NCBI RefSeq assembly: GCF_006364715.1 | Contig: NZ_CP040984.1 | Span: 421,446-453,445 of the forward strand | Reading direction: 5' to 3' | From: Candidatus Methylopumilus planktonicus | Lineage (GTDB): Bacteria > Pseudomonadota > Gammaproteobacteria > Burkholderiales > Methylophilaceae | Length of the DNA stretch: 32,000 nt | Shown: positions 3,021 to 31,616 of the stretch, piece by piece | How positions within the stretch are numbered: position 1 is the stretch's first letter | How the letters are laid out: each line of letters begins with the position of its first letter | Notes under the pieces: generated by a model | What the model was told of the DNA's origin: nothing | Seen by the model: the letters and a program-made list of their open reading frames with translations, nothing else | Databases searched by the model: none | Translations under genes and position numbers: made by a program

Positions 3021-4238
3021 TTGTGGGTGAGCTTTTTCTTTATTGCTTTATTAAGTGCAATATGGAGATGGGTGGGTCAAGGTAACGCTGAAGTTTTTGC
3101 TCACATGTTGGATAGCCTTTTCTCCATGGCAAAGTTATCCGTTGAAGTGATGGTATTACTTTTTGGAACACTGACTCTTTGGCTAGGTTTTTTAAAGATT
3201 GCTGAACACGCAGGTTTAGTTGAAAAGATAGCATCTTGGCTTTCACCACTTTTTAGACGACTCATGCCCGAGGTTCCTAAAAATCACCCAGCTACAGGTC
3301 TTATCACCATGAATTTTATTGCAAATGGATTAGGTCTTGATAATGCTGCGACACCTATTGGGTTAAAAGCGATGCGATCATTGCAATCACTTAATCCGAC
3401 ACCAAAAATTGCAAGTAATGCACAGATTCTTTTTTTAGTTATGAATGCTTCATCACTTACCTTACTTCCCGTATCAATTTTTATGTATCGTGCACAGCAA
3501 GGTGCGGTAGATCCCACACTCGTATTTTTACCTATTCTTTTAGCGACAAGTGCTTCTACCATGGCCGGCTTCTTCTCAGTTGCTTTCGCTCAGCGAATTA
3601 AATTAAATGACCCGGTAGTCATAACATGGATGTTAGCAATTGCGACTTTATTAAGTACGTTTATCTTATTTTTAAGCCACTTATCAGTAGCGGCATTAGG
3701 TGCATTCTCATCTCTCTTAGGCAATGCTGTCCTTTTCGGATTGATTATTACTTTTCTACTAATAGGTATTTTAAAACGTGTGCCAGTCTACGAGTCATTC
3801 ATTGAGGGTGCTAAAGAAGGTTTTGATGTCTCTAAAAATTTACTGCCTTACCTAGTTGCGATGTTATGTGCAGTCGGTGTTCTCCGAGCATCAGGTGCGC
3901 TTGATGTTGTATTAGATATGATTCGTTATCTAGCGACTAGTTTTAACTGGGATACGCGTTTTGTAGATGCATTACCTACAGCACTTGTGAAACCATTTTC
4001 TGGAAGTGCCGCAAGAGCTATGCTCATTGATACTATGACAACACATGGTGTGGATAGCTTTCCGTCACTTTTAGCAGCAACTGTACAAGGCAGTACTGAA
4101 ACTACTTTTTATGTTTTAGCAGTTTATTTTGGTGCAGTTGGTATTCAGCGTGCACGACATGCAGTTACTTGCGCATTGTTTGCAGACCTTGTGGGCGTCT
4201 TAGCATCTATTGCTGTTTGTTATTGGTTTTTTGGATAA
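3021..4238 (+). CDS. nucleoside-recognition (Gate) domain membrane protein, SpmA/SpmB-like fusion
   Basis: 405 aa and polytopic. The segment GLGLDNAATPIGLKAMRSLQ resembles the SpmA-type Gate domain. The start is a TTG/GTG cluster at 3021-3029 and is uncertain. Confidence 0.7.
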   Translation: MWVSFFFIALLSAIWRWVGQGNAEVFAHMLDSLFSMAKLSVEVMVLLFGTLTLWLGFLKIAEHAGLVEKIASWLSPLFRRLMPEVPKNHPATGLITMNFIANGLGLDNAATPIGLKAMRSLQSLNPTPKIASNAQILFLVMNASSLTLLPVSIFMYRAQQGAVDPTLVFLPILLATSASTMAGFFSVAFAQRIKLNDPVVITWMLAIATLLSTFILFLSHLSVAALGAFSSLLGNAVLFGLIITFLLIGILKRVPVYESFIEGAKEGFDVSKNLLPYLVAMLCAVGVLRASGALDVVLDMIRYLATSFNWDTRFVDALPTALVKPFSGSAARAMLIDTMTTHGVDSFPSLLAATVQGSTETTFYVLAVYFGAVGIQRARHAVTCALFADLVGVLASIAVCYWFFG

Positions 4239-4940: not shown

Positions 4941-5111
4941 TTTTATAACCTATTGATTTATATAGTTTTTTTGTAATTATCCCGGTTTAGTGTCATTTCT
5001 CTCATGATTTTCATTAGATCTCATTCATGATCCTCAAGGTGTTTACTTTTTAAGTCCGAGTAGTATTACGTTTAAGTACTTTCTCATTAACTTAATAAAA
5101 GGATCAACATC

Positions 5112-5183
5112 ATGTGGACAACTCCAGCTGCTACTGAAATGCGTTTCGGTTTCGAAGTTACAATGTATGTAATGAATAAATAA
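5112..5183 (+). CDS. pqqA: coenzyme PQQ precursor peptide
   Basis: Not in the ORF track. The 23-aa product MWTTPAATEMRFGFEVTMYVMNK carries the PqqA signature E-x3-Y (EVTMY) in a W..P...E...G.EVT.Y context. An SD (AAGGA) lies 8 nt upstream and an intrinsic terminator follows. Confidence 0.85.
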   Translation: MWTTPAATEMRFGFEVTMYVMNK

Positions 5184-5200
5184 TTATTCAGATTTAATAA

Positions 5201-5227
5201 AAAAGCCCGCTTAATGCGGGCTTTTTT
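5201..5227. terminator. bidirectional intrinsic terminator between pqqA and the convergent oxidoreductase gene
   Basis: Stem GCCCGC (5205-5210) / GCGGGC (5216-5221) with loop TTAAT. An A-run lies on one side and T6 on the other. Confidence 0.8.
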
Positions 5228-5240
5228 GTTTTTAATCATT

Positions 5241-6245
5241 TTAAAAATTAACCCAGGCTTTTGTTTTAATGGAGGCTTGAATTGCTTCTAATGTTTTTGT
5301 ATTCCAAAGCGCATCAACTAGAGAAAGTTTGGGCGCAGTGTTATTAATGATGCATTGATTAAAATGATCTATTTCAAGTGTAAAGTGATTAGCTTTTTCA
5401 ATACGCTCATTCTTTGAGCCATCTGCATCTGTTGTCATGGTTAATTGTGCCTCATCATTTTCATGTTGCCATACGGTATGACACATCAACTTCCCTTTAG
5501 ACCCAAAGACTTCAAATTGAGAGCGTCTCACACATTCAAAGCTAATATCAAATTGCGCACGTCGATTCAGACCAAAATCAATCATGCCCGAAGTAGTTAA
5601 ATCTGCCCCATGATCGTTAAGATGGCTTGTTGCAACAACTGATAAGGGGTTCTGATCAAAGCATTGTCGAATCGTATGAATAGCATAGGGTCCAATGTCC
5701 CAGAGAGCGCCACCACCATTTTCAATTGATCGATCGATACGATAAAAACGTGCAGGCTGGATTGGAAAAGAAAACATTGAATGCACATACTGAACATCAC
5801 CTAACAATCCTGAACTAATGATTTCTTTTATACGATCAAACTGTGGATGAAAGACATACATAAAACCTTCCATCACTTTGACATGATTTTTATCAGCCGC
5901 CTCCTGAATTAATTCAACTTCTTTTGAATGAAGCGTGATCGGCTTTTCTATGAGCACATGTTTTTTTTTATTGATTGCTTTAAGAGCGGGCTCAGTATGC
6001 TCTTCGTTCGAAAGTGGGATATAAATAGCGTCTATATCAGGATGATTAATTACTTCATCTAATGAATTGAAGGTTTGAACTTTGCCTACAAGTGCGGGCT
6101 GGTATTTTTCCAAGCATTCTGCTGCTGCATTCTGCCTCCTACTTCCAATAGCAACGAGCTCACCAAAAGGACTATTAGCAATAGCTGGAAGAAGGCGTTC
6201 ATTGACTCGCGCAGCTCCTAGAATGCCCCAACGCACTTTTTTCAT
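5241..6245 (-). CDS. Gfo/Idh/MocA family oxidoreductase
   Basis: 334 aa. The N-terminal Rossmann motif is VRWGILGAARVNERLLPAI, with EKP in LIEKPITL typical of the family. Confidence 0.88.
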   Translation of the reverse strand: MKKVRWGILGAARVNERLLPAIANSPFGELVAIGSRRQNAAAECLEKYQPALVGKVQTFNSLDEVINHPDIDAIYIPLSNEEHTEPALKAINKKKHVLIEKPITLHSKEVELIQEAADKNHVKVMEGFMYVFHPQFDRIKEIISSGLLGDVQYVHSMFSFPIQPARFYRIDRSIENGGGALWDIGPYAIHTIRQCFDQNPLSVVATSHLNDHGADLTTSGMIDFGLNRRAQFDISFECVRRSQFEVFGSKGKLMCHTVWQHENDEAQLTMTTDADGSKNERIEKANHFTLEIDHFNQCIINNTAPKLSLVDALWNTKTLEAIQASIKTKAWVNF

Positions 6246-6749: not shown

Positions 6750-7064
6750 TTATTTACGTCCGCGTTTAGGTAATACAACACCAAGTCTTTGAGCAGCCAT
6801 TTCATTATTACCTTCTGAGTCTGCTAAAACCCATCCAGTCATAAACATACGTGTCATATATTGTCTGTTGTATAAAAAAGCCACAATAACCTGCCATAGT
6901 CCCAGTGTGATAATTGAAAAAAGCATATGAAGAGCTGCAACACCTAATTCACCTCTAAAAAGCGGGACAAACCAACCAAAAAAAAGATAGGTCCAACTAA
7001 AGCCATAGTAACCAATTTTGATCATGCCCGAATTTGGATGTTTAATAATTACGGCAGTAGCCAT
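6750..7064 (-). CDS. small membrane protein (two TM helices)
   Basis: The track ORF (6750..7160) runs into the tRNA-Lys gene. The internal ATG at 7064 (MATAVIIKH...) has an AGGAA SD 6 nt upstream and avoids the overlap. Confidence 0.65.
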   Translation of the reverse strand: MATAVIIKHPNSGMIKIGYYGFSWTYLFFGWFVPLFRGELGVAALHMLFSIITLGLWQVIVAFLYNRQYMTRMFMTGWVLADSEGNNEMAAQRLGVVLPKRGRK

Positions 7065-7127
7065 TGTTGTTCCTTGGTTTAGAAGGTTAAATTTTAATAG
7101 AGATTGCGAGAAAAAAACTAATATTAA

Positions 7128-7203
7128 TGGTGGGGGATGCGAGGGTCGAACTCGCGACAAACGGATTAAGAGTCCGCTGCTCTACCAGCTGAGCTAATCC
7201 CCC
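7128..7203 (-). tRNA. tRNA-Lys (anticodon CUU), the only intact copy
   Basis: The reverse complement reads GGGGGATTAGCTCAGCTGGTAGAGCAGCGGACTCTTAATCCGTTTGTCGCGAGTTCGACCCTCGCATCCCCCACCA. It forms a 76-nt cloverleaf with anticodon loop CT-CTT-AA and an encoded CCA. Confidence 0.93.
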
Positions 7204-7290
7204 AGAAAAGAACATTTTACAGTATTTGTGGGGGTTGTAGAGGGGGTAGGATTGGGGATTTTGTTGGGGCTGGAATAGGGGTGTGTTAGG
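7166..7290 (-). repeat. repeat unit copy 1: tRNA-Lys positions 1-38 plus about 87 nt of G-rich (plus strand) leader
   Basis: Matches 8525-8650, 9298-9370 and 15515-15640 in direct orientation. All copies keep CAGAAA..ATTTTACAGTA next to the tRNA 5' end (TAAAAT on the tRNA strand, a likely -10). Confidence 0.85.
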
Positions 7291-7303
7291 AAATCACCAA
7301 TAG

Positions 7304-7333
7304 TTGACAACATTGGGGGGGGGTAGATATTAT
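7304..7333 (+). promoter_or_regulatory. sigma70-type promoter TTGACA-N18-TATTAT with a G9 homopolymer in the spacer
   Basis: TTGACA at 7304-7309, G9 at 7315-7323 and TATTAT at 7328-7333. It lies upstream of the 7410 HTH gene. Confidence 0.6.
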
Positions 7334-7364
7334 CTACATGCACTGTAAAAGTGCACATTGTGAT

Positions 7365-7389
7365 GCCTATTTTGATATAGGCTTATTTT
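7365..7389 (+). terminator. weak terminator-like hairpin in the leader of the 7410 gene
   Basis: Stem GCCTAT (7365-7370) / ATAGGC (7377-7382) followed by TTATTTT. It is preceded by a second hairpin TGCAC-N7-GTGCA (7339-7355). Confidence 0.4.
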
Positions 7390-7409
7390 AACCTTATCTC
7401 ATTTTTAGC

Positions 7410-7676
7410 ATGGATAATTTTGAATATAACTTTGAGCTATTAAAAGCTACACGCTTAAGTAAAAAAATCTCAGCGCAAAGTATGGCTGCTGATTTATGTT
7501 TGGCTGAACGTCAAATCATTTCTATCGAAGAAAATAGCGTTCAATATTTTCCTTCTAAATCTCTTAAATACACCAGCTTAAAAAAATACATAGCAGCACT
7601 TGGTTTAAAAAATGAGGATGTCATCTTCAATTTTAATGAAGTTGACCCCACCCCAAGTTTGTTAAAGAAGCCATAG
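7410..7676 (+). CDS. RodZ-N-terminal-like (HTH_25-type) DNA-binding protein, paralog 1
   Basis: 88 aa with the pattern LLK.TR..K.IS....A..L.L...QI..IEEN....FP......LKKYIAALGL. It is paralogous to 17498..17764 and 20450..20836. Confidence 0.7.
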   Translation: MDNFEYNFELLKATRLSKKISAQSMAADLCLAERQIISIEENSVQYFPSKSLKYTSLKKYIAALGLKNEDVIFNFNEVDPTPSLLKKP

Positions 7677-7679
7677 AGT

Positions 7680-8069
7680 ATGCGAGCATTTGGTAATCTA
7701 TTCATTATTTTAAGTATTTTCACCTCAATACTCTTTGGACTTGAGTATTTTTCTGAAGCTACAATTGTGTTCTTAGCAGTTCTTCTGTATCTCACAGGGC
7801 ATTATGTGAGGCATAATTTTACCTATCGCAATTTTAAGATAAGCAGGCGATCAAAACCTTTTTTTGAATCAATATTAAAAAATACAATACAAGCCATTGC
7901 CTATGTAACTATCTTCATTTTTGTAGGCTACATACTCCTAAAAATCTCAAAAACTGATTTTTATCTAAATAATCTCCAAAGTTTGATGCAAAGCTCTATT
8001 GATGTAATCAATGAAATAATCAGATTTTGGATTAACTTACCTAGTCAATTAATGAAGTATGGACAATAA
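7680..8069 (+). CDS. membrane protein (variable middle gene of cassette 1)
   Basis: 129 aa with three hydrophobic helices. It starts 3 nt after the previous stop and overlaps the next gene by 11 nt. Confidence 0.55.
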   Translation: MRAFGNLFIILSIFTSILFGLEYFSEATIVFLAVLLYLTGHYVRHNFTYRNFKISRRSKPFFESILKNTIQAIAYVTIFIFVGYILLKISKTDFYLNNLQSLMQSSIDVINEIIRFWINLPSQLMKYGQ

Positions 8070-8388
8070 GCATCCTTTATTGACGAGTGCTTGTGAATAT
8101 ATAGAAATAAATCTTCATCTTAAGATTTCGATGTTAGATCTCAAGCGCCATACCAATTATTCCGAACGATCTTTACAGTTAATATTTAAAAAATACTTAA
8201 ATAAAAGTCCATTTGAATATATTGAAGAGCAAAGATTGTTAAAGGCTCACGAATTGATTAAGCAGCATAAACAATCAAAGAAAACTACTCACATTGCTAC
8301 AGAAGTAGGATTTAGACATTTAGGAAGATTCTCTGTGAACTTCAAAAAAAGGTTTGGCATTCATCCTTCAGTTTTAGCTCGATCTTAA
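8059..8388 (+). CDS. stand-alone AraC/XylS-type HTH regulator (SoxS/MarA-sized), paralog 1
   Basis: 109 aa containing only the AraC double-HTH region (LQLIFKKYLNKSPFEYIEEQRLLKAHELI...GFRHLGRFSVNFKKRFGIHPS). Confidence 0.8.
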   Translation: MDNKHPLLTSACEYIEINLHLKISMLDLKRHTNYSERSLQLIFKKYLNKSPFEYIEEQRLLKAHELIKQHKQSKKTTHIATEVGFRHLGRFSVNFKKRFGIHPSVLARS

Positions 8389-8400
8389 CTTAGAGATCAC

Positions 8401-8417
8401 CGTCAAAAATTTTGACG
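8401..8417. repeat. perfect palindrome CGTCAAAA-A-TTTTGACG at the cassette 3' boundary
   Basis: 8-bp arms. Related copies occur at 18528-18544 (degenerate) and 22705-22719, each just after a stop codon. Confidence 0.6.
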
Positions 8418-8420
8418 TTC

Positions 8421-8440
8421 GGTGTGCTTAGGTGTGCTTG
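8421..8440. repeat. tandem GGTGTGCTT x2, candidate arm-type integrase binding sites
   Basis: GGTGTGCTTAGGTGTGCTTG lies about 40-55 nt from tRNA-like relic copy 2. The same GTGYGC motif recurs next to copy 4 and the integrase at 15413-15453. Confidence 0.4.
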
Positions 8441-8477: not shown

Positions 8478-8650
8478 TGCCTGGGTCTACTAGGGTGAGA
8501 TCTCAGAAAATTTAACTGATCTGCGAGTCCGCTGCTTGACCAGCTGAGCTAATCCCCCAGAAAAGAACATTTTACAGTATTTGTCTGGGTTGCAGAGGGG
8601 GTAGGTCGGGGGATTTTGGTAGTGGTGGAATAGGGGTGTGCTACGAAATG
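8478..8650 (-). pseudogene. tRNA-Lys relic copy 2 with a decayed 3' half, plus a leader copy
   Basis: 8525-8558 matches tRNA positions 1-34 with 2 mismatches. On the tRNA strand, 8478-8504 reads GAGATCTCACCCTAGTAGACCCAGGCA against the tRNA's GAGTTCGACCCTCGCATCCCCCACCA (about 17/27 with one gap). 8559-8650 is a copy of the G-rich leader. Confidence 0.6.
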
Positions 8651-8665
8651 CTGGTTTTTTTTAGC

Positions 8666-9271
8666 TCAAATTTCTCTAATAGCCGTGCTAATGACTTTAT
8701 AGGATGAGCGTAGCAAAAAGATTGATAGTGCTAATCCCACCACGATATCTGCCCAACCACTCTGTGTAAACCACACAATAAGTGATGCAATGATGACAGC
8801 AATATTATTTGCAATATCATTTCTTGAACATTCCCAAACAGATGACATATTAATATCTTGATCTTTGTGTTTTGTAAGCAAATACAAACAAGTTAAGTTT
8901 CCTAATAATGCTATAACACCTACAACACTCATGATTTCAAATACAGGAATCGTGTGATTGATAATATGTTGGATGACTTGAAATAAAACAAATAATGCAC
9001 CGACTAATATTAATAGTCCTTTAAATAAAGCCACTTTAGCTTTAGCTTGATTGCTCTTATAGATGACAAATAAACTTAAAGCATAAGTAATCGCATCACC
9101 TAAATCATCTAAGCTTTCTGACATCAAGCCTGTTGAATGTGACATCCAACCAGAACTAAAAACAATTAAGAACAAGAACACGTTAATCGCTAAAACGATT
9201 TTTAATGTTTTTGATTGATTTACTTTTAAGGCATCAACAGCACAGCTTTTATTTTCGCAGCAATCTGACAT
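8666..9271 (-). CDS. cation diffusion facilitator-like transporter (membrane domain only)
   Basis: 201 aa with a Cys-rich N-terminus (MSDCCENKSC), a TM2-type acidic motif SESLDDLGDA, and six hydrophobic segments. Confidence 0.6.
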   Translation of the reverse strand: MSDCCENKSCAVDALKVNQSKTLKIVLAINVFLFLIVFSSGWMSHSTGLMSESLDDLGDAITYALSLFVIYKSNQAKAKVALFKGLLILVGALFVLFQVIQHIINHTIPVFEIMSVVGVIALLGNLTCLYLLTKHKDQDINMSSVWECSRNDIANNIAVIIASLIVWFTQSGWADIVVGLALSIFLLRSSYKVISTAIREI

Positions 9272-9297
9272 TTCTTATCTTATTAAGTTGAGTTTTA

Positions 9298-9370
9298 GCT
9301 GCTCTACCAACTGAGCTAATCCCCCAGAAAAGAACATTTTACAGTAATTGTCTGGGTTGTAGGGGGTTTC
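9298..9370 (-). repeat. tRNA-Lys relic copy 3: positions 1-28 plus a truncated leader
   Basis: GCTGCTCTACCAACTGAGCTAATCCCCC has 1 mismatch to the tRNA. It is followed by AGAAAAGAACATTTTACAGTAATTGTCTGGGTTGTAGGGGG, and homology then stops. Confidence 0.75.
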
Positions 9371-9484
9371 TAATGGTGTAAATCGTATTCTAAGTTTTGT
9401 TGTGCGCAAGTGAAAGTTCAAAAACCATACACAGCGTATGGAAAAAAGTATTAGAATGATTTTAATAATTTAGAAAATACTTAA

Positions 9485-12268: not shown

Positions 12269-12835
12269 ATGGCACAAGCAAAATCGTTAACGCAATATGA
12301 AATCGATCAAGTACTTCGTTATGTATCAACTACACGTTATCACAAACGCAATCGTGCAATTGTGCTTACAAGTTTTTGGAGTGGTATGAGGGTGGGTGAA
12401 ATTGCTAATCTAAAAATAAGTGATATACGAAACGAAGATGGAAGTGTTAAAAGTGAAATAAGATTAACTTCAGCCCAAACAAAAGGAAAGTTTGGGCGTA
12501 CGGTGTATGTAAATGAGAAATTGCGCAGTGAATTAACTAATTATTTGGTTGGTTACAAACTGATTGAACCAAGTGCACCATTATTTAAAACAGAAAAAAA
12601 CAAAGCGTTCAGCCCAAACACTTTAACGCAATGGTTTTTTTGGATGTATAAAAAAGCTGCGGTGAGTGGGGCAAGTAGTCATAGTGGACGCCGTACTTTT
12701 ATTACTACATTGGCTCAGAAGGGGGTAGGGGTGCGGGTTTTAGCCAAGCTAGCTGGGCACCGCTCTATATCCATTACACAGGTCTATATTGATGTAAACG
12801 CTGATATGATGCGTAAAGCAGCGGAGCTCATATAA
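12269..12835 (+). CDS. small catalytic-domain-only tyrosine recombinase (FimB/FimE-sized)
   Basis: 188 aa. Arg-I context is GMRVGEIANLKISDI, H-x-x-R is in HSGRRTF, and H...Y is in GHRSISITQVY. An SD (GAGGAG) lies 7 nt upstream. Confidence 0.85.
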   Translation: MAQAKSLTQYEIDQVLRYVSTTRYHKRNRAIVLTSFWSGMRVGEIANLKISDIRNEDGSVKSEIRLTSAQTKGKFGRTVYVNEKLRSELTNYLVGYKLIEPSAPLFKTEKNKAFSPNTLTQWFFWMYKKAAVSGASSHSGRRTFITTLAQKGVGVRVLAKLAGHRSISITQVYIDVNADMMRKAAELI

Positions 12836-14134: not shown

Positions 14135-15373
14135 TTAACTTTCAATTAGTTTTCGAGTTGCTAATCCACTTAATTGTTCAATTGCTTTTACAGCATCTAA
14201 GTGACTGTAATGTTTTTCAATCATTACAACTGATGTTCCCATTTGTTTTGCTAACGTGTGTATGTTTACGTTGTCATACGTCAATGCAAACGTAGCATAA
14301 GTGTGTCGTATGCTGTAAAACGAACGTGGTTTAAGTGTAATAGGGCAAATAAGCAACTTCATTTCTTTTAAATAACCAATAAACATTCTAAAAAAACTAC
14401 TTGGCTTAACCATTTTAGGTATTTGATTTAATTTTCCATTACGTTTACTGCAAAATTCTATATATCGAAAGATGTAATCTTGTTTATTTGCATTTAGTAT
14501 ATCTTCTAACGACATATTAAAATTACGTTCTGCAATTCTACGCAGAGCTTGTATTGTTGGCTCACGAGCGATTGCACGACGTTCGCCTGTTTTACTTTTC
14601 TGTATGTTAAAAATTAAATTGTGTTCGTTAGCAAATTTAATATTGCTCCATTTCAATTCAAACAACTCACGTCCAGGACGTGCACCTGTGTCTAATAAAA
14701 TAATCACATAGTCTTTTAATAGATAACGTAGTTGCATACTGTGTGTTTTTGCTTTTTGTATCCAACTATCAAATCCACTCATCATCTTTTTAATTTCTTC
14801 TAAACTAAACTCGACACGACGTTCACACTTTGCACCTTTTGCAACTAACACAGGACGCTGTGCTTCAGTCATATAGCCGTGCAATACAGCTTCATCAAAT
14901 ACACGTTTAAGCGCAGCATTGTGATTTAGTATAGTGCTCCGTTTAGGAACTTTACCCATTTTTTTAATACGAAACTTTTCTAACAACTCTAATTCTTTTA
15001 ATTTAATTTGTTCGACTGACAAGTTGCCAAGCACGGGAGTTAGATAACTTCTAATTATCATTGAGTAATCTTTGTAAATTGCTTTACCTTCATTCTGTGC
15101 AATTTCATTTTCAATTCTTTGCATTGCTAATTTTGCAACATCCTTAAATTTTTTTGACACAGGAGCGATGTTTAATTTATCTCGCACGTGTGCTTCAATT
15201 AAAATCATATTCGCACTTTGTATTGCACTTTCTAATGTGTATTCATTTGTCGAGCAACGTATCCACTCATCTTTAATTTTGTATCGACATTGCCACTTGT
15301 CACTGTTCGCTCGCTTAAACACAATTAGTTTGCGTTTAATTACTTCGTGTGTAGTTTCTATACGCTCTCTCAT
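14135..15373 (-). CDS. tyrosine-type site-specific integrase
   Basis: 412 aa. The Arg-I context is TGARPGRELFELKWSNI, with IRHTYATFAL and a C-terminal IEKHYSHL (catalytic Tyr). It lies next to a tRNA-like relic. Confidence 0.88.
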   Translation of the reverse strand: MRERIETTHEVIKRKLIVFKRANSDKWQCRYKIKDEWIRCSTNEYTLESAIQSANMILIEAHVRDKLNIAPVSKKFKDVAKLAMQRIENEIAQNEGKAIYKDYSMIIRSYLTPVLGNLSVEQIKLKELELLEKFRIKKMGKVPKRSTILNHNAALKRVFDEAVLHGYMTEAQRPVLVAKGAKCERRVEFSLEEIKKMMSGFDSWIQKAKTHSMQLRYLLKDYVIILLDTGARPGRELFELKWSNIKFANEHNLIFNIQKSKTGERRAIAREPTIQALRRIAERNFNMSLEDILNANKQDYIFRYIEFCSKRNGKLNQIPKMVKPSSFFRMFIGYLKEMKLLICPITLKPRSFYSIRHTYATFALTYDNVNIHTLAKQMGTSVVMIEKHYSHLDAVKAIEQLSGLATRKLIES

Positions 15374-15480: not shown

Positions 15481-15640
15481 TGGCTGTAGGATGGGGTGAC
15501 TCTGAACAACGTTTTTAAGAGTCCGCTGCTCTACCAGCTGAGCTAATCCCCCAGAAAGTGATATTTTACAGTAATTGTGGGCGTTGTAGAGGGGGTAGGT
15601 GGGGGGATTTTGGCAGGGGTGGAATGGGGGTGTGTTGAAA
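15481..15640 (-). pseudogene. tRNA-Lys relic copy 4 (perfect 5' 38 nt, decayed 3' half) plus a leader copy
   Basis: 15515-15552 is identical to tRNA positions 1-38. On the tRNA strand the continuation is AAACGTTGTTCAGAGTCACCCCATCCTACAGCCA against the tRNA's TCCGTTTGTCGCGAGTTCGACCCTCGCATCCCCCACCA, with ordered blocks CGTT, GAGT, ACCC, CATCC and CCA. 15553-15640 is the G-rich leader. Confidence 0.65.
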
Positions 15641-15643
15641 AGC

Positions 15644-17391: not shown

Positions 17392-17484
17392 CTGACATAA
17401 ATATTTCATCATAATTTCACAATCAACAGATATTGTGTAAATGTTCTCCAAAGAATACTTGCCCTCGTAATGAGGGCTTTTTTT
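17392..17484 (+). promoter_or_regulatory. conserved 93-bp promoter/leader block ending in an intrinsic terminator (copy L2)
   Basis: Starts CTGACATAAATA and ends GCCCTC-GTAAT-GAGGGC-T7. It is 77/93 identical, ungapped, to 20239-20331. Confidence 0.6.
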
Positions 17485-17497
17485 ACTAGAAATATCT

Positions 17498-17764
17498 ATG
17501 AATAAACTTGAATACAATTGTGATCTACTAAAAACTACTCGCGAAAGCAAGAAGATTACAGCACATAGTATCGCCGTTGATATATGTTTAGCTGAGCGTC
17601 AGATTAAGTCTTTAGAAGAAAATAGTCTTCAATACTTTCCCTCTCAATCCATCAAATACACAGCTTTAAAAAAATATATAGCCGCACTGGGATTAAAAAT
17701 TGATGACGTTATCGTTAACATTAATCAAATTGATCCAATACCCAGCTTATTAAAGAAGAAATAA
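17498..17764 (+). CDS. RodZ-N-terminal-like HTH protein, paralog 2
   Basis: 88 aa and collinear with 7410..7676 (for example DICLAERQIKSLEENSLQYFPSQSIKYTALKKYIAALGLK). Confidence 0.7.
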   Translation: MNKLEYNCDLLKTTRESKKITAHSIAVDICLAERQIKSLEENSLQYFPSQSIKYTALKKYIAALGLKIDDVIVNINQIDPIPSLLKKK

Positions 17765-17768
17765 GCCT

Positions 17769-18179
17769 ATGAAATTTAAATATACAATTTTGCTTTTTGC
17801 ATGGGTTATAAGTTCTTCTTTATCCCATGCGTCTGATTTCGATTCCCTGTCAGAGCTTATTCAAAAAGGTAAGGAAACCGAAGCAATTGCAAAAATTAAT
17901 CGGTATATACAAAAATACCCAAACGACCCCAAGGTAAAATTTATTTATGGGGCAACCCTTGACCATTTTGGTAGGACACAAGAAGCCAAAAAAGTTTTTT
18001 TACATTTAAATCGTAAATACCCAAATAATCCTACTATTAAGAATAATCTTGGTGTTCTCTATGCAAAGCTGGGTGAATACAGTGCTGCTTATACTTTTTT
18101 TGGATCTGCCTTGAGATTGAAACCTAATTATCAAGAAGCTAAAAATAATCAATGGCTTGTTCAACAGAAGATTAACTAA
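17769..18179 (+). CDS. secreted TPR-repeat protein (variable middle gene of cassette 2)
   Basis: 136 aa with a signal peptide ending SLSHA. TPR-like repeats include NNLGVLYAKLGEYSAAYTFFGSALRLKPNYQEA. Confidence 0.7.
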   Translation: MKFKYTILLFAWVISSSLSHASDFDSLSELIQKGKETEAIAKINRYIQKYPNDPKVKFIYGATLDHFGRTQEAKKVFLHLNRKYPNNPTIKNNLGVLYAKLGEYSAAYTFFGSALRLKPNYQEAKNNQWLVQQKIN

Positions 18180-18186
18180 TTTTTAT

Positions 18187-18516
18187 ATGAGCCAAAAAGA
18201 TCCTGTATTTTTAAGTGTATGTGAATATATACAAGCTAATGTTAAATCTAAAATCACCATGTCAAATCTTGAGAGGTACGCTGCGCTTTCTGGAAGAGCT
18301 TTACAGTTAAAATTTAAGAAATATCTAAACAAAACACCCTTTCAATACATACAAGAACAAAAGATGTTAAAGGCGCATGAGTTAATTAAGGAATATCAAT
18401 GCTCTAAAACAATCTCAGAAATTGCTCTTGAATTAAAATTTAGCCATTTAGGAAGATTTTCTGTGAACTTCAAAAAAAGGTTTGGCATTTATCCTTCAGT
18501 TTTAGCTCGATCTTGA
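18187..18516 (+). CDS. stand-alone AraC/XylS-type HTH regulator, paralog 2
   Basis: ATG 18187 (MSQKDPVF...) gives 109 aa, the same length as paralog 1. The track start at 18157 overlaps the TPR gene. The last 70 nt are 68/70 identical to 8317-8386. Confidence 0.8.
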   Translation: MSQKDPVFLSVCEYIQANVKSKITMSNLERYAALSGRALQLKFKKYLNKTPFQYIQEQKMLKAHELIKEYQCSKTISEIALELKFSHLGRFSVNFKKRFGIYPSVLARS

Positions 18517-18924: not shown

Positions 18925-19299
18925 TTAGTTTTGTGTTGGTGGGTTTTTAGCTGGCGTAACTTTTTTTGGTCTTTTAGCCCTTGGTTTTGCCTTAGTGCTT
19001 GATTTTGTTTTAGCTTTGGCTTTCACTGGAGCCGCAACACTTAATTTTTTAGCAATACTACTAAGTGAAGTTGTTAATGATTTAGCAAGCCTTTCTGCTT
19101 CAGCTTTTCTTTTCTTTTGTGTCACTTTGTCACTACTCTTGATAGCGCTAATGGATGCTTTTTGCTGTGCTTGCATTTCTGCTCTTAGAAAAGCATCTAA
19201 CGCTTTAGCGATATTATTAACCTTCTTATTGTTAGAAGGTTTGGTTTTACTCTTTGTTGCTACGATCTTTTTGACTACTTTTTTTGAATTTTTTTTCAT
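18925..19299 (-). CDS. Lys/Ala-rich histone H1-like nucleoid-associated protein
   Basis: 124 aa with extreme K/A content and AKxK-type repeats (PVKAKAKTKSSTKAKPRAKRPKK). Confidence 0.55.
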   Translation of the reverse strand: MKKNSKKVVKKIVATKSKTKPSNNKKVNNIAKALDAFLRAEMQAQQKASISAIKSSDKVTQKKRKAEAERLAKSLTTSLSSIAKKLSVAAPVKAKAKTKSSTKAKPRAKRPKKVTPAKNPPTQN

Positions 19300-19611: not shown

Positions 19612-19800
19612 ATGAAGAAAAAAGGTTTTTATGATTATTTGAAACAACAAGCAGGCGAGGGAATTCACTATATATATTGCGCTCATTGTAAGGTCGATGC
19701 AGATTATATTGGCGACAGGCTAGAAAGACATTTACCTTCTTGCGAATATCGTATTAATAAACAAAAGACATTTGAAGAAAGTTACTCTTTTTCAGGGTAA
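19612..19800 (+). CDS. C2HC zinc-finger-like mini-protein, paralog 1
   Basis: 62 aa with C-x2-C-x13-H-x3-C. It shares the block LERHLPSCEYR with 19953..20135. Confidence 0.55.
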   Translation: MKKKGFYDYLKQQAGEGIHYIYCAHCKVDADYIGDRLERHLPSCEYRINKQKTFEESYSFSG

Positions 19801-19952: not shown

Positions 19953-20135
19953 ATGAGCAATCCAATATCAAGTTCAAACATTCCTAATGCTAAATGTTCT
20001 TTTTGTGGCATTGATACTGAAATTAGTAATAAACTAGAGCGTCATCTGCCTAGTTGCGAATATAGAAAAAATACTGAGCATTATATTGAAAAGATTGACC
20101 CTCATTTTAATTTTCATAGTTGGACAGAAGACTAA
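19953..20135 (+). CDS. C2HC zinc-finger-like mini-protein, paralog 2
   Basis: 60 aa with C-x2-C-x12-H-x3-C and the identical LERHLPSCEYR block. An SD (GGAGA) lies 7 nt upstream. Confidence 0.55.
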   Translation: MSNPISSSNIPNAKCSFCGIDTEISNKLERHLPSCEYRKNTEHYIEKIDPHFNFHSWTED

Positions 20136-20238: not shown

Positions 20239-20331
20239 TTGACATAAATACTTCATCTCAAGGTCACAATCAATAGTTATTCTAGATTCGTTCTCCAAAG
20301 AATATTTGCCCTCGTAAAGAGGGCTTTTTTT
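20239..20331 (+). promoter_or_regulatory. conserved 93-bp promoter/leader/terminator block (copy L3)
   Basis: Starts TTGACATAAATA and ends GCCCTC-GTAAA-GAGGGC-T7. It is 77/93 identical to 17392-17484, and the mismatch within the terminator hairpin (position 80) falls in the loop. Confidence 0.6.
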
Positions 20332-20449
20332 CCCAAAGATTATGTCTCTAAAACATATATTACAAGGGGACGGTAGATCCAATAGTCCTTGTATTAACAA
20401 ACTCCAATACCTAGGCCTATTTAAGTAAAGAATTTCTTCTAACCTTATT

Positions 20450-20836
20450 TTGGTGTTTGATATCGATAATTTTGAATATAACTTTGAGCTTCTTAAAAAG
20501 ACGCGTGAAGATAAACAAATGAGCAAGCTCGAAATGGCTCATCAACTATGCTTATCTGTAAATCAAATTGATTCCATTGAAGAGAATAGCTTTAGATACT
20601 TTCCGGCAGAATCTATAAAGTTCGCAGCAGTCAAAAAATATGTATTAGCACTTAATTTGGATTTAGATCAGGTAATAATAAAAGAAGACGAGGTGGCTCC
20701 GCTTAATGCCCCCTCAACAGTTCCTTCATTACTCTCAAAAGAAAAAAATAAGATTAAAAAAGGCACTTACAGAAACAAAGCCAATGAATTAAGAAAAGCA
20801 TGGCAAGACTTGTTGCGTAGATTGCTTAAAAATTAA
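20450..20836 (+). CDS. RodZ-N-terminal-like HTH protein, paralog 3 (longer, basic C-terminal tail)
   Basis: 128 aa with a TTG/GTG start (20450/20453). DNFEYNFELLKKTRE...NQIDSIEENSFRYFPAESIKFAAVKKYVLALNL is collinear with paralogs 1 and 2. Confidence 0.65.
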   Translation: MVFDIDNFEYNFELLKKTREDKQMSKLEMAHQLCLSVNQIDSIEENSFRYFPAESIKFAAVKKYVLALNLDLDQVIIKEDEVAPLNAPSTVPSLLSKEKNKIKKGTYRNKANELRKAWQDLLRRLLKN

Positions 20837-21071: not shown

Positions 21072-21464
21072 ATGACAACCCTTGCTGAAATACTAGTAAA
21101 TTCCAAAAGAAAATTCTTTAACAACGTGATCCGTCAGGAATTAGATCATTTCCCAATATCACCAAAGCTTATTCAGGAAATCGATGATGTATATACTCTT
21201 GATTTTTTAGAACCTAGCTTTAAGGATCTTGAGCGAATAAAAAAACCTACACCTTATATGATTGTTGAGATGATGGAAGAGTGGGTAGCGGTATCTAATT
21301 TAGATGAGTATCTATATAACAACTATCCAAAAGACTGGTCAGCCATACAAGATATTATTTTCTTTAACTTAAGAGATGAGTTATTGAATGCGCATCACAC
21401 CTTCCATCAAGAAACAAAATTTGATGATGATTACGGATTAAATGAAATGGCTTTTTACTTCTAA
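21072..21464 (+). CDS. hypothetical acidic protein, tandem paralog A
   Basis: 130 aa, collinear with the next gene (L..L....K.F......EL..F..S.KL..EID..Y..D.LE..F..LE... NY..DW.AI.D.I..NL..EL.NAH). Confidence 0.5.
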   Translation: MTTLAEILVNSKRKFFNNVIRQELDHFPISPKLIQEIDDVYTLDFLEPSFKDLERIKKPTPYMIVEMMEEWVAVSNLDEYLYNNYPKDWSAIQDIIFFNLRDELLNAHHTFHQETKFDDDYGLNEMAFYF

Positions 21465-21806
21465 GTGGAGTCTTTAGCCAAACTTCTTATCAAGCATAAA
21501 AATAAATACTTTATGCGAGAGTTAGAGAGCGAGTTATCTGAGTTCAAGGCTTCAAAGAAATTGATGAAAGAAATCGATGAAGCCTACTCAAAAGATTTGT
21601 TAGAAAAATGTTTTAGTGGACTTGAGCATAAGAAGCAATTCTCTCAAAAAAGTGCTGATCTTATGATTGAGCTTTGGTTTGATCTCTCAGGGTTTCAGAA
21701 ATACATTCAAAAAAATTATAGTGATGATTGGGTAGCCATTCACGATGTTATTCATCTTAATTTAAGTGAAGAGCTCATGAATGCGCATTATGATATTCAT
21801 AATTAA
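21465..21806 (+). CDS. hypothetical acidic protein, tandem paralog B
   Basis: 113 aa. The GTG start immediately follows the stop of paralog A. Confidence 0.5.
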   Translation: MESLAKLLIKHKNKYFMRELESELSEFKASKKLMKEIDEAYSKDLLEKCFSGLEHKKQFSQKSADLMIELWFDLSGFQKYIQKNYSDDWVAIHDVIHLNLSEELMNAHYDIHN

Positions 21807-21844: not shown

Positions 21845-22699
21845 ATGGAATTACAGTTCTTAGATAGCATAGAAATACTAGCCCATCGCTTGGGTACTTC
21901 TATGTCTACACTCTTTAAGATCACAGCCATTATTGTGATCGCTCTTATTTTAACTAATCTTATTCGTCGTGCAATTAACTTGTTTAGTTCCGAGATAGCC
22001 AAGAACTCTTCAGGACGAGATGCTGCAACAAGGGTGAATACTTTAGGTAGAGTTTTTAGATATATCGCATCCGTTATCATTTACTTAATCGCTTTTATGC
22101 TGATCTTAAGTGAATTGAAGATTAATATTGCCCCCATTTTAGGTGCTGCGGGTATTGTTGGTGTAGCGATTGGATTTGGAGCACAATCTTTAGTTAAAGA
22201 CTATGTAGGCGGTTTATTTATTCTGATCGAAGATCAAATAAGACAAGGTGACACTATAAAAGTCGAAGGCTATGAAGGTTCAGTTGAAGAAATTACACTC
22301 CGCTATGTAAGACTCAGGGATTACGATGGATTTGTGCACTTTATTCCTAATGGACAAATTCGTATTGTCACCAATATGGGTCGAGATTTTTCATATGCAA
22401 CATTTGATATTACGTTAGGTTATGAAGTTAATCTCGATAAAGTAATTAAGCTTATGCAAGAGACAAGTCAAAAGTTAAGAAAATCTCTAGTCTATAAAAC
22501 TTCAGTGCTGTCTGATATTGAGATTTCTGGTATAGATCGTCTGAATGAATCTAATCTGGTAATTAAAGCAAGAATTAAGACACAAGCTATGGAACATTCA
22601 AACATTAAACGTGAATATTTGCGCTTGATGAAGCTGGCATTTCAAAAGGCAAAAATTAAGCCGCCTTATTCCCAAATTGTCGTGCACCGACCAAGGTAA
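21845..22699 (+). CDS. MscS-family mechanosensitive ion channel
   Basis: 284 aa. Three N-terminal TM helices include the pore-helix-like stretch GAAGIVGVAIGFGAQSLVKDYVGGLFILIEDQIRQGD. A beta-domain follows. Confidence 0.88.
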   Translation: MELQFLDSIEILAHRLGTSMSTLFKITAIIVIALILTNLIRRAINLFSSEIAKNSSGRDAATRVNTLGRVFRYIASVIIYLIAFMLILSELKINIAPILGAAGIVGVAIGFGAQSLVKDYVGGLFILIEDQIRQGDTIKVEGYEGSVEEITLRYVRLRDYDGFVHFIPNGQIRIVTNMGRDFSYATFDITLGYEVNLDKVIKLMQETSQKLRKSLVYKTSVLSDIEISGIDRLNESNLVIKARIKTQAMEHSNIKREYLRLMKLAFQKAKIKPPYSQIVVHRPR

Positions 22700-22894: not shown

Positions 22895-23152
22895 TTACTT
22901 ACTTTCATATTCAGATCCAGGGTTAAAGCCACCATTGCCACCAATCAATAATGCATCTGTAGGGTGAAATGGTTTAAAGTCAGGTTCTACTTCAACCTTA
23001 TTTCCATATTCAGTGCCAGGATTAAAGCCACCATTACCACCAATCAATAATGCATCTGTGGGATGAAAGGGTTTAAAACCTAAATCTTCTTCTGCGAAAA
23101 GAGGAACGCTCAAGAAAGAAAGTAAAAAAACAAAAGCTAATATTTTTTTCAT
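22895..23152 (-). CDS. small secreted protein with two near-identical repeats
   Basis: 85 aa with signal peptide MKKILAFVFLLSFLSVPLFA. FKPFHPTDALLIGGNGGFNPG then occurs twice, 21/21 identical. A GGAG SD lies 8 nt upstream. Confidence 0.6.
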   Translation of the reverse strand: MKKILAFVFLLSFLSVPLFAEEDLGFKPFHPTDALLIGGNGGFNPGTEYGNKVEVEPDFKPFHPTDALLIGGNGGFNPGSEYESK

Positions 23153-31112: not shown

Positions 31113-31616
31113 ATGGCTAATGAGACGGTATATTTAGCAGGTGGATGCTACTGGGGTTTTGAAGATCTCTTAAGCAAAATACCAGGTGTCATTGAGACGG
31201 CTGTGGGTTTCTCTGGCGGACATGTTAAAAATGTCAGTTATCGAGAGGTTTCTTCAGGAACTACAGGGCATGCTGAAACGGTAAAAGTTATTTTTAATTC
31301 CGATATTTTAAGCTTTACCGATTTACTTACATTTTTTTTCAAAATGCATAATCCAACGACACTGAATCAGCAGGGCAATGATATTGGAACGCAATATCGA
31401 TCGGCAATTTTTGCGACAACGGACGAGCAAATTTTATTAGCCGAGGAATTAATTAAAAAGATTGATTCATTAGGAGTTTTAACAAAAAAAATTACTACCG
31501 AAGTTAATACATTTAATACATTTTTTCTTGCTGAAGACAATCATCAGAAATATTTAGAGAAATATCCAGATGGCTATACATGCCATTTCATTAGGGATAT
31601 TAATTTATCAGTTTAA
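31113..31616 (+). CDS. msrA: peptide-methionine (S)-S-oxide reductase
   Basis: 167 aa with the active-site motif GGCYWG (LAGGCYWGFE) and conserved GHAETVKV. Confidence 0.92.
   Translation: MANETVYLAGGCYWGFEDLLSKIPGVIETAVGFSGGHVKNVSYREVSSGTTGHAETVKVIFNSDILSFTDLLTFFFKMHNPTTLNQQGNDIGTQYRSAIFATTDEQILLAEELIKKIDSLGVLTKKITTEVNTFNTFFLAEDNHQKYLEKYPDGYTCHFIRDINLSV

Follow-up and report, generated by a model that had tools for sequence, protein, structure and literature searches.

In the marRAB, soxRS and ramRA circuits a dedicated helix-turn-helix (HTH) regulator controls an activator that consists of a DNA-binding domain only, and MarB is a small periplasmic protein. Small proteins of another kind, the ANR (Aar-type) proteins, bind AraC-family activators. 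Here, we describe a gene cassette in which a small HTH_25 gene is followed by a middle gene and by the gene of a bare AraC-type DNA-binding domain. The cassette occurs twice (copies A and B) in a stretch of 32,000 nucleotides from Candidatus Methylopumilus planktonicus (contig NZ_CP040984.1, positions 421,446 to 453,445 of the forward strand), which is referred to as the window in the following. An envelope-linked transcription switch is its most likely role.

Among freshwater bacterioplankton, Ca. Methylopumilus (LD28) ranks with the most abundant members, and its streamlined genome of ~1.3 Mb has few regulators (PMC10872708, Layoun et al. 2024). Ca. M. planktonicus and Ca. M. universalis carry the additive island fGI-2, which is marked by repeats of ACCAGCTGAGCTAATCCCCC and contains mostly genes of unknown function besides mscS, czcD, msrA and photolyase genes; ~80% of the genes of this additive island have no assigned function, and no bona fide integrons were reported (PMC10872708). 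Stacking of elements that are split by partial tRNAs is the pattern of successive integrations at tRNA genes (Hackl et al., bioRxiv 10.1101/2020.12.28.424599). The HTH and AraC genes described here are not mentioned in PMC10872708 or in the supplements examined. Literature searches did not find a published description of an HTH_25-AraC unit or of a fusion of XRE and AraC domains, which agrees with an earlier, sequence-only reading of the window that had recognised no described system.

Two copies of the cassette in the window

The sequence-only reading had proposed that the same three-gene architecture is present at 7410-8388 and 17498-18516, with an 88-aa HTH protein first and a 109-aa protein containing the AraC double HTH last. 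Both statements were borne out by the open reading frames (ORFs) and by Pfam, which assigned the proteins to HTH_25 and HTH_18 (Table 1). The HTH proteins of copies A and B are 71% identical (BLASTP E=6e-47) and the AraC proteins 62% (BLASTP E=1e-51); DNA repeats D2 and D3 link the two cassettes, and the likeness between them is far above chance. The middle genes had been described as tightly coupled to the regulators but unrelated to each other, a three-span transmembrane (TM) protein in copy A and a secreted TPR protein in copy B. Indeed, TM129 and the TPR protein did not match (E=4.6). In copy A, the gap between the HTH gene and TM129 is 3 nt and TM129 overlaps araC by 11 nt; in copy B, the gaps are 4 nt (HTH-TPR) and 7 nt (TPR-AraC), if the ATG of the NCBI annotation is taken as start of AraC copy B (the mechanical ORF begins at TTG 18157). 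Hydropathy analysis revealed three hydrophobic segments in TM129 with a basic loop at residues 42-68, and an N-terminal hydrophobic segment resembling a signal peptide in the TPR protein. A homology search with TM129 gave 556 relatives, every one of them 129 aa long, Methylopumilus-type and not assigned to a Pfam family, and none of these 556 was an informative distant relative; DUF5687 was rejected as family of TM129 because the Pfam match was below the cut-off. The exact proteins of both cassettes are present in NCBI genomes of Ca. M. planktonicus and Ca. M. universalis (for example QDD10705-QDD10720). The G+C content of the window is ~33%.

The earlier reading had also raised the possibility that the copies arose by a simple recent segmental duplication. 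Between copies A and B, the HTH genes have a synonymous divergence (dS) of 1.7 and the AraC genes one of 0.9 and, therefore, a recent duplication can be discarded; judged by these values, the copies are old paralogs. The ratio of nonsynonymous to synonymous divergence (dN/dS) among alleles from other genomes and metagenomes was 0.20 (HTH), 0.25 (TM129) and 0.17 (AraC) for copy A and 0.23 (HTH), 0.57 (TPR) and 0.15 (AraC) for copy B. The values of 0.15-0.25 indicate that the cassette genes are under purifying selection.

As had been noted before, a third HTH paralog at 20450 (56% identical) heads a different gene set, and ORFs and Pfam agree on this. It is followed by a pair of paralogs (21072-21464 and 21465-21806) and by the gene of an MscS channel (21845-22699). 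The two adjacent paralogs are 40% identical (E=2e-28) and match no known family. Two further paralogs of ~60 aa (19612-19800 and 19953-20135) have a zinc-ribbon-like CxxC...LERHLPSCEYR motif and are kept upstream of this type of HTH operon (type C, see below) in many loci. A 99-nt tandem duplication, 83% identical, was found at 22898-23092 in a short ORF without family match (22895-23152, minus strand).

Layouts of the HTH-AraC pair and its core-genome counterpart

Related loci (L numbers) were collected with a profile of the HTH protein, which gave 8 genome loci and 73 metagenome loci whose ORFs were scored with hidden Markov models of the window HTH and AraC proteins; the scan of the genome collection that yielded the 8 loci used narrow peptide patterns. 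Together with further loci from exact-protein look-ups, ~115 related loci were obtained overall. The HTH-AraC pair was found in five layouts. The two genes follow each other with a zero-nt gap and without a middle gene in type D (HTH81 then AraC112; 5 units plus 6 retrieved through AraC), they enclose TM129 in type A (HTH88 - TM129 - AraC109-112; 23 units in the first census) and the TPR gene in type B (HTH88 - TPR - AraC; 9 units). In type F (L093-L096), the HTH is part of a 183-aa HTH-linker-TM fusion whose gene overlaps that of AraC118 by 11 nt, and in type G (L089-L092, L097-L099) HTH_25, linker and AraC form a single protein of ~232 aa, which is followed by a secreted protein of ~150 aa. 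Directly upstream of the AraC homolog there was a gene for HTH_25 or for the HTH-TM fusion in 38 of 38 cases of the first census, and the same is true of the loci retrieved through AraC. The HTH gene, in turn, also occurs without AraC. In type B' (HTH88 - TPR; 7 units) AraC is lost and a convergent gene encoding a peptidoglycan (PG)-binding lipoprotein takes its place, in type C (HTH125-129 - two paralogs - MscS; ~22 units), the third HTH subfamily, AraC was never present, and it is absent from the few solo HTH genes. One further HTH gene (L030) heads a DUF2946 gene and the gene of a TonB-dependent receptor.

Profile searches and gene-neighbourhood analysis, which had been suggested as a check, thus found the pairing conserved with different or no middle genes. 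Conservation holds for every AraC homolog of the first census but, given types B' and C, not for every HTH gene. Of the proposal that the cassette is a modular two-regulator unit with an exchangeable payload, the first part stood, the pairing recurring in dozens of genomes and contigs; the second has to be narrowed, since TM129 and TPR are the only gene families found between the two regulators, if there is one at all. Nor is the co-occurrence of both regulators restricted to this genome: it is widespread in Methylopumilus-type genomes and metagenome contigs. A HMMER search of 1.84 billion cluster representatives with the HTH profile returned 135 proteins with E<=1e-3, 17 of which had E<=1e-10, and the weaker matches were mostly RodZ-length proteins. 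True RodZ proteins, which have 262-296 aa, group apart as an outgroup (L075-L081). Contigs with the fused form carry housekeeping proteins that share 90%-identity clusters with Ca. Methylopumilus proteins, and one member of the HTH-TM fusion cluster has an accession resembling a marine metagenome. The taxonomic range is narrow: as far as these searches see, the module appears to be confined to pelagic Methylophilaceae and to be widespread within that lineage, its absence outside Methylophilaceae resting mainly on the exhaustive HMMER search.

The unit is also present at a core locus, where the gene order is phosphoglucomutase - outer-membrane protein (Phenol_MetA_deg) - histidine kinase - FixJ/NarL-type response regulator - HTH - (TM129) - AraC, followed by genes for TauE, a radical-SAM protein and CorA. 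This context holds type D and, in other populations, type A; tRNA repeats or an integrase were not found at the core locus. In complete genomes of Ca. M. universalis, the core locus is at ~0.46-0.48 Mb and the tRNA-Lys island that is described below at ~0.42-0.44 Mb, ~30-50 kb apart. Since genes for an outer-membrane protein, a histidine kinase and a response regulator lie directly upstream, the core unit is not sensor-less. The earlier statement that both regulators are DNA-binding only and without sensors is therefore correct for AraC, which consists of its domain alone, and needs revision otherwise, DNA binding by the HTH protein being deduced from its fold and the core unit being placed behind a two-component system. 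The right end of the window was considered as a core type D locus and rejected, because genes for a TonB-dependent receptor (28789-30933) and MsrA (31113-31616) are there instead.

Genes with a relation to the envelope are recurrent neighbours of the units: TM129, TPR, the secreted ~150-aa protein, the PG-binding lipoprotein, outer-membrane proteins and MscS. The convergent lipoprotein (129-142 aa) has a PG_binding_1 domain and a lipobox (L-E/Q-G-C) and is a 3' neighbour of type A, type B' and fused units (L001 1298-1687, L003 6892-7320, L090 8184-8573, L106-L115 ~3492-3881); its gene is absent beside both window copies. In L089 and L097-L099, the fused HTH-AraC gene (7001-7696 / 5001-5699) follows a cluster of T2SS-F-like, pilin-like (N_methyl) and STAS/anti-sigma kinase genes, with thiD/thiE just downstream, and pilus or secretion genes may be targets of the fused regulator.

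The HTH and AraC genes do not always have the same history. In L004 and L053, AraC is 86-88% identical to that of window copy A but the HTH protein only 55-59%, and the latter is nearer to type D (60-64%) than to the window HTH. The HTH of L024 is equally near to A (80%) and B (81%). By these identities, the paralogs exchange HTH alleles. Decay and variation among cassette alleles were seen in L035 (1974-2312), L026 (4650-4987) and L040 (683-1114), which show an HTH with a ~24-aa internal duplication, a frameshift-split AraC or an AraC with a divergent, longer C-terminus.

Fusion proteins, folds and family membership

The fused HTH_25-linker-AraC proteins of ~232 aa make up more than 50 clusters, which are 45-93% identical to one another and keep both domains as well as a variable charged linker. 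In one of them, P0379 (232 aa), the N-terminus is 48% identical to the window HTH (E=8e-25) and the C-terminus 56% to the window AraC (E=1e-41). The other fusion, P0376 (183 aa), comprises an HTH that is 67% identical to the window HTH, a linker and a terminal TM segment. Its tail (...PSLLMKYGK) resembles that of TM129 (...PSQLMKYGQ), and its gene overlaps araC by 11 nt, as does TM129 in the window. The split HTH proteins, in turn, have a conserved tail, D-P-x-P-S-L-L-K-K. Since the parts are fused in relatives, HTH, TM protein and AraC probably cooperate physically and, by this Rosetta-stone argument, probably act as one machine. Therefore, the middle protein is more likely a working partner, as membrane tether or sensor, than the payload or cargo as which it had been described.

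The AlphaFold model of the stand-alone 88-aa window HTH was poor (mean pLDDT 77.7, helices 2 and 3 merged) and, therefore, the fused homolog P0379 was used to examine the fold. Its model has a five-helix N-terminal domain (residues 8-73, pLDDT 82-96 per 10-residue block), a disordered linker of ~50 aa (residues 76-124, pLDDT <50) and a seven-helix AraC domain (pLDDT ~95). Foldseek matched the N-terminal domain to SinR, the 434 repressor and the RodZ-like YmfM with target-normalised TM-scores of 0.71, 0.76 and 0.71, respectively, and also to a C protein and HipB; the HTH_25 domain is thus predicted to have the Xre/cI-type five-helix fold. The C-terminal domain matched AraC-type DNA-binding domains including MarA, SoxS and RamA with target-normalised TM-scores of 0.76-0.86. 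For the window AraC the closest solved structures are 3oio, RamA and MarA, with SoxS also near.

The window AraC belongs to the AraC/XylS family and consists of the DNA-binding domain alone: copy A scored 70.7 bits with HTH_18 (cut-off 33.6) and 29.0 bits with HTH_AraC (cut-off 26.6), copy B 64.1 bits with HTH_18. Orthology to SoxS, MarA or RamA was not found, the NCBIfam scores being 31.3 (cut-off 174), 25.8 (250) and 35.8 (180); therefore, AraC is regarded as a structural analogue, not an ortholog, of these proteins. The RodZ equivalog of NCBIfam gave a score of 16.6 against a cut-off of 375, and the 88 aa of the window HTH include neither a TM segment nor DUF4115. A scan for defence and toxin-antitoxin components with PADLOC gave one weak generic HTH match and nothing for the other cassette genes, and a scan of viral contigs with the HTH profile revealed no relatives.

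Table 1 Coordinates of the cassette genes and associated elements in the window
Feature	Position	Strand	Description and basis
HTH copy A	7410-7676	+	88 aa; Pfam HTH_25 33.2 bits, cut-off 24.6
TM129, middle gene copy A	7680-8069	+	129 aa; no Pfam family
AraC copy A	8059-8388	+	109 aa; Pfam HTH_18 E=1.3e-19, residues 30-108
HTH copy B	17498-17764	+	88 aa; Pfam HTH_25 31.9 bits
TPR protein, middle gene copy B	17769-18179	+	136 aa; several TPR Pfam families
AraC copy B	18187-18516	+	109 aa; Pfam HTH_18 E=1.4e-17
Third HTH_25 paralog, type C	20450-20836	+	128 aa; HTH_25 29.7 bits; no AraC partner
Candidate promoter, cassette A	7304-7333	+	TTGACA, 18-nt spacer, TATTAT; promoter scan, 11/12 match
G9 tract in promoter spacer, copy A	7315-7323	+	sequence
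13-bp palindrome over -10, candidate operator	7324-7336	+	TAGATATTATCTA; sequence
Hairpin/palindrome after AraC stop, copy A	8398-8424	+	CACCGTCAAAAATTTTGACGTTCGGTG; sequence, blastn junctions
~95-nt non-coding element upstream of HTH copy B	17393-17493	+	repeat D5
Second ~95-nt element, upstream of third HTH	20240-20340	+	hairpin 20308-20324
Intact tRNA-Lys(CTT), island anchor	7128-7203	-	ARAGORN; Rfam tRNA 70.1 bits
Repeat copy 1, left boundary of cassette A	7170-7294	-	direct-repeat family D1, alignment
Repeat copy 2, truncated, right boundary of cassette A	8525-8649	-	D1; like arrangement in L003, L087, L093
Truncated tRNA-Lys repeat	9292-9416		direct repeats, alignment
Most distal truncated tRNA-Lys repeat	15519-15643		direct repeats, alignment
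Tyrosine integrase, full-length, beside distal repeat	14135-15373	-	412 aa; Pfam Phage_integrase

The tRNA-Lys island and cassette mobility

Copy A had been placed inside a tRNA-Lys array, and one intact tRNA-Lys(CTT) with three truncated copies was found; Rfam matches to the truncated tRNAs were at chance level only. The repeat unit of ~125 nt comprises ~90 nt of a C-rich upstream (promoter) region and the 5' half of the tRNA, and in the alignment the identity among the repeats stops at the anticodon loop. Since the repeat carries these parts, incoming elements would supply a new promoter and 5' half on integration, instead of the more usual 3' part. ACCAGCTGAGCTAATCCCCC, the published mark of fGI-2, is the reverse complement of the tRNA-Lys 5' end, and the mscS, czcD, msrA and photolyase genes of fGI-2 are all found in the window; the setting of copy A is thus this published additive island, the repeat being 20 nt in the literature and ~125 nt in the window.

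Copy A is the sole content between the first two tRNA-Lys repeats. This cassette of ~1.3 kb has no integrase, and such island units are ~1.3-1.5 kb in size. Copy B is not flanked by tRNA-Lys repeats in the window, but type A or type B units are enclosed by such repeats in many contigs, for example in L032, in the order A / repeat / B / repeat, and in L042, in the order repeat / B / repeat right beside the tRNA flank. In CP040970, two type A cassettes are stacked between three repeats; with a DNA identity of 87%, they count as separate alleles and not as a recent duplication. Ten loci with an identical HTH protein share the cassette and the convergent gene of the PG-binding lipoprotein, and their outer flanks all differ. 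In strain MMS-RVI-51 (L002) the whole cluster of outer-membrane protein, histidine kinase, response regulator, HTH, TM and AraC genes is enclosed by tRNA-Lys repeats, and its orientation to the tRNA is reversed; with the whole cluster inside the repeats, an inversion between two copies of the cassette is too simple an explanation for this strain and was rejected. Between strains, the island cassettes stack, invert and swap HTH alleles. An integron gene cassette was rejected as well, since the boundaries are tRNA fragments and not attC sites.

Mobility of the cassettes in trans is likely due to the full-length tyrosine integrase beside the distal repeat. An integrase that is 98.8% identical to it has the same position in L093, followed by repeat-bounded cassettes including a variant with HTH-TM fusion and AraC. 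A second tyrosine-recombinase gene (12269-12835), located in the largest island segment, encodes 188 aa with the catalytic domain only, and the pair of 412-aa and 188-aa recombinases recurs in L093-L095. The cassette next to copy A (8650-9291, between two repeats) has a single gene, a CDF/czcD-type cation efflux gene (8666-9271, minus strand); this gene adjoins type A cassettes in L014, L107 and L110.

Promoters, hairpins and homopolymer tracts

Palindromes of the form AGAT-N3-ATCT, similar to the candidate operator TAGATATTATCTA over the -10 element of the near-consensus promoter of cassette A, were found at other alleles. Towards 3', copies A and B are homologous up to the hairpin CACCGTCAAAAATTTTGACGTTCGGTG; a related sequence follows copy B, and blastn identified the hairpin as the junction of the inverted arrangement in MMS-RVI-51. 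A non-coding element of ~95 nt precedes HTH genes of types A, B, B' and C and solo HTH genes in 36 loci. At copy B it ends in the hairpin GCCCTCGTAATGAGGGC (17461-17477) and a T7 run, and the invariant hairpin GCCCTCGTAAnGAGGGC with a T run is found at the element end, at ~-37 or -154 from the start codon. The element is better conserved than the adjoining coding sequence and appears to travel with the HTH "head", but window copy A does not have it. It had no match in Rfam, where only chance-level hits were obtained with gathering and E-value thresholds, and an anti-terminator alternative to the conserved hairpin was sought and is not evident. The element may be an insulating terminator, a leader or a small RNA.

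The G9 run in the promoter spacer of copy A is the only G/C run of at least 7 in the 32-kb window. Alleles with identical flanks differ in this tract (G7, G8 and G9 in L020, L023 and L019, respectively; G8-G9 in isolates). The core locus has a C tract as well, located between the stop codon of the response regulator and the HTH gene; three complete genomes of Ca. M. universalis with identical flanks carry C9, C18 and C9 there, and C7-C17 was found elsewhere (tract positions ~3690-3710 in L100-L105 and 3927 in L002). Tract lengths from metagenome contigs may include assembly errors. Such tracts bear the marks of hypermutable sequence and could change the spacing within promoters, and their different length between near-identical strains may hint at phase variation. 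A further C7-9 tract (plus strand) is located just upstream of the gene for a 124-aa lysine-rich protein in L021 (4043), L029 (4049), L048 (1859) and L052 (2777); the equivalent of this gene in the window (18925-19299, minus strand) adjoins cassette B.

Proposed function and alternative explanations

We propose, with about even confidence, that the cassette is a lineage-specific, multi-part transcription switch of pelagic Methylophilaceae. AraC, a bare DNA-binding domain of the MarA/SoxS/RamA kind, would be the output and the HTH_25 protein its dedicated partner, in place of the usual N-terminal regulatory or dimerisation domain; HTH_25 may add dimerisation or a third DNA-reading head and may repress its own promoter through the palindrome over the -10 element. 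In type A, the complex would be held at the membrane, or gated, by TM129. At the core locus, the outer-membrane channel and the histidine kinase with its FixJ-type response regulator would supply the signal. The repeated presence of envelope genes nearby suggests that inputs or targets are related to the envelope. The island unit is self-contained, with its own candidate promoter, and can be stacked, inverted and recombined between strains. Gene and domain content, conservation, the fusions, the cassette boundaries and purifying selection are seen in the sequences, whereas physical interaction, DNA binding by HTH, autoregulation and envelope-related targets are what we infer.

Several observations weigh against this proposal. 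The HTH_25 domain of RodZ binds MreB rather than DNA, and DNA binding by the window HTH is assumed from the fold, for which the model of the stand-alone protein gave no meaningful match in the PDB. HTH genes without AraC (type B', type C and solo copies) imply that the partnership is not obligatory, and the incongruent histories of HTH and AraC in L004 and L053 speak against tight co-evolution. The middle protein of type B is predicted to be periplasmic and, therefore, would have no direct contact with cytoplasmic partners. Finally, the similarity between TM129 and the TM part of P0376 is weak (48% over 23 residues, E=5e-4) and may partly reflect the overlapping start codon of araC.

An unlikely explanation is that the loci are ordinary paralogous operons, in which a duplicated HTH-AraC pair received unrelated genes by insertion, the regulators act independently and the middle genes are co-expressed envelope payload. 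Type D without a middle gene in the core genome, the restriction to two middle-gene families, the swapping of HTH alleles independently of AraC and the HTH genes that stand alone or head other operons (DUF2946 and TonB-dependent receptor in L030; type C) all fit this explanation. However, independent regulators are not expected to appear as repeated, conserved HTH-AraC and HTH-TM fusions, and gene order and tight coupling are kept across ~50% protein divergence.

We consider it rather improbable that the cassette is a sequestration switch, likened to anti-activator or partner-switching systems, in which HTH_25 binds protein instead of DNA and holds AraC inactive at the membrane via TM129 until an envelope signal frees it. 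Against it stand the palindromes at HTH promoters and a domain whose sequence and fold follow the classical Xre pattern, recognition helix included, and permanent tethering in the fusions would make simple sequestration pointless. The HTH_25 family is, on the other hand, dominated by RodZ, the HTH-TM fusions reproduce the RodZ-like layout of cytoplasmic HTH, linker and TM segment, the HTH-AraC fusions tie both domains together, and the D-P-x-P-S-L-L-K-K tail is kept in split HTH proteins.

Housekeeping of a mobile element, with HTH and AraC controlling excision, integration or maintenance and the cassettes being decayed remnants, is very unlikely. Although the cassettes lie between att-like tRNA-Lys repeats, often nearest to the tRNA, an integrase-bearing array holds a variant cassette and Xre-type regulators often control mobile elements, a stable core locus next to a two-component system exists in many genomes without repeats or integrase, nothing matched in viral contigs or defence/phage libraries, and the genes of integrase-less cassettes are under purifying selection. 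A toxin-antitoxin-like or defence module of Xre-type antitoxin and small membrane toxin is hardly credible: it is suggested by the order of an Xre-like HTH and a small membrane protein in a flexible island and by the weak generic HTH match of PADLOC, but the defence models did not match any of the other genes, systems of this kind have no place for AraC and a toxin role does not fit a TM protein that can be absent, replaced by TPR or fused to HTH.

The data show one recurrent, strain-variable island unit to be a coherent regulatory module with a fixed core counterpart wired to a two-component system, which gives a concrete handle on how such streamlined cells adjust the functions of their envelope. 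With its fused and split forms, the family is a natural Rosetta-stone case for a new partner domain of AraC-type DNA-binding domains. A more far-reaching version, an undescribed split, tethered or fused factor in which a RodZ-type HTH replaces the AraC sensor domain, with stochastic switching of its promoter by G/C tracts and spread as integrase-less tRNA-Lys cassettes, is conceivable but doubtful. If it were true, a streamlined planktonic bacterium with very few regulators would diversify envelope expression within the population via a phase-variable mobile regulator, and the variable tracts would suggest population-level bet-hedging in a free-living oligotroph, which would be unusual outside host-associated bacteria. 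Even if the functional readings fail, the cassette is a clean annotation of a lineage-specific operon family.

Comparison with known systems

The combination of an AraC DNA-binding domain and a RodZ-type HTH as its partner, split, tethered or fused and partly mobile, is unusual in its architecture and in its series of fusions. With RodZ, the HTH protein shares the N-terminal HTH_25 domain, the 183-aa relatives show the RodZ-like HTH-linker-TM layout, and the JGI annotation of window-type HTH proteins is "RodZ"; the 183-aa relatives, however, are without DUF4115, and the domain is tied to AraC rather than to the cell-shape machinery. C proteins of restriction-modification systems are likewise small Xre-fold heads of mobile operons with a palindrome at their own promoter, but restriction-modification genes are not present here and the sequence matches are weak, the likeness being one of general fold. 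ANR proteins and the window HTH are both small, and the HTH is encoded together with, and proposed to bind, an AraC-family regulator; unlike it, ANR proteins do not belong to the HTH domains and are not known as fusions with their targets, and no sequence relationship connects the two.

As to the setting, the units are split by partial tRNAs and small units lack an integrase, as in fGI-2, in stacking of the tycheposon type and in cis-mobilisable elements (CIMEs); the operon described here differs in that it is found at a fixed core locus too. ToxR/ToxS, TcpP/TcpH and CadC share with the proposed complex a membrane-tied cytoplasmic DNA-binding module beside a small envelope protein, which would sense and pass on the state of the envelope, but their domain is an OmpR-type winged helix, and it is the fusion variants alone that suggest tethering here. 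In the marRAB, soxRS and ramRA systems, as in the window, one operon encodes a sensor-less AraC protein of ~110 aa, a small HTH protein and a further small protein of the envelope and, by analogy, output may be set by the amount of activator. Their partners are of the MarR, MerR and TetR type, whereas the partner in the window has the predicted HTH_25/Xre fold and the gene order is different; a MarR-family repressor was not found in the window operon, whose first gene is HTH_25, and a partner fused to the AraC domain has no counterpart there. In sum, the unit seems to come nearest to a circuit of the marRAB/soxRS type to which a membrane-tethered regulator has been joined, placed in a known type of island.

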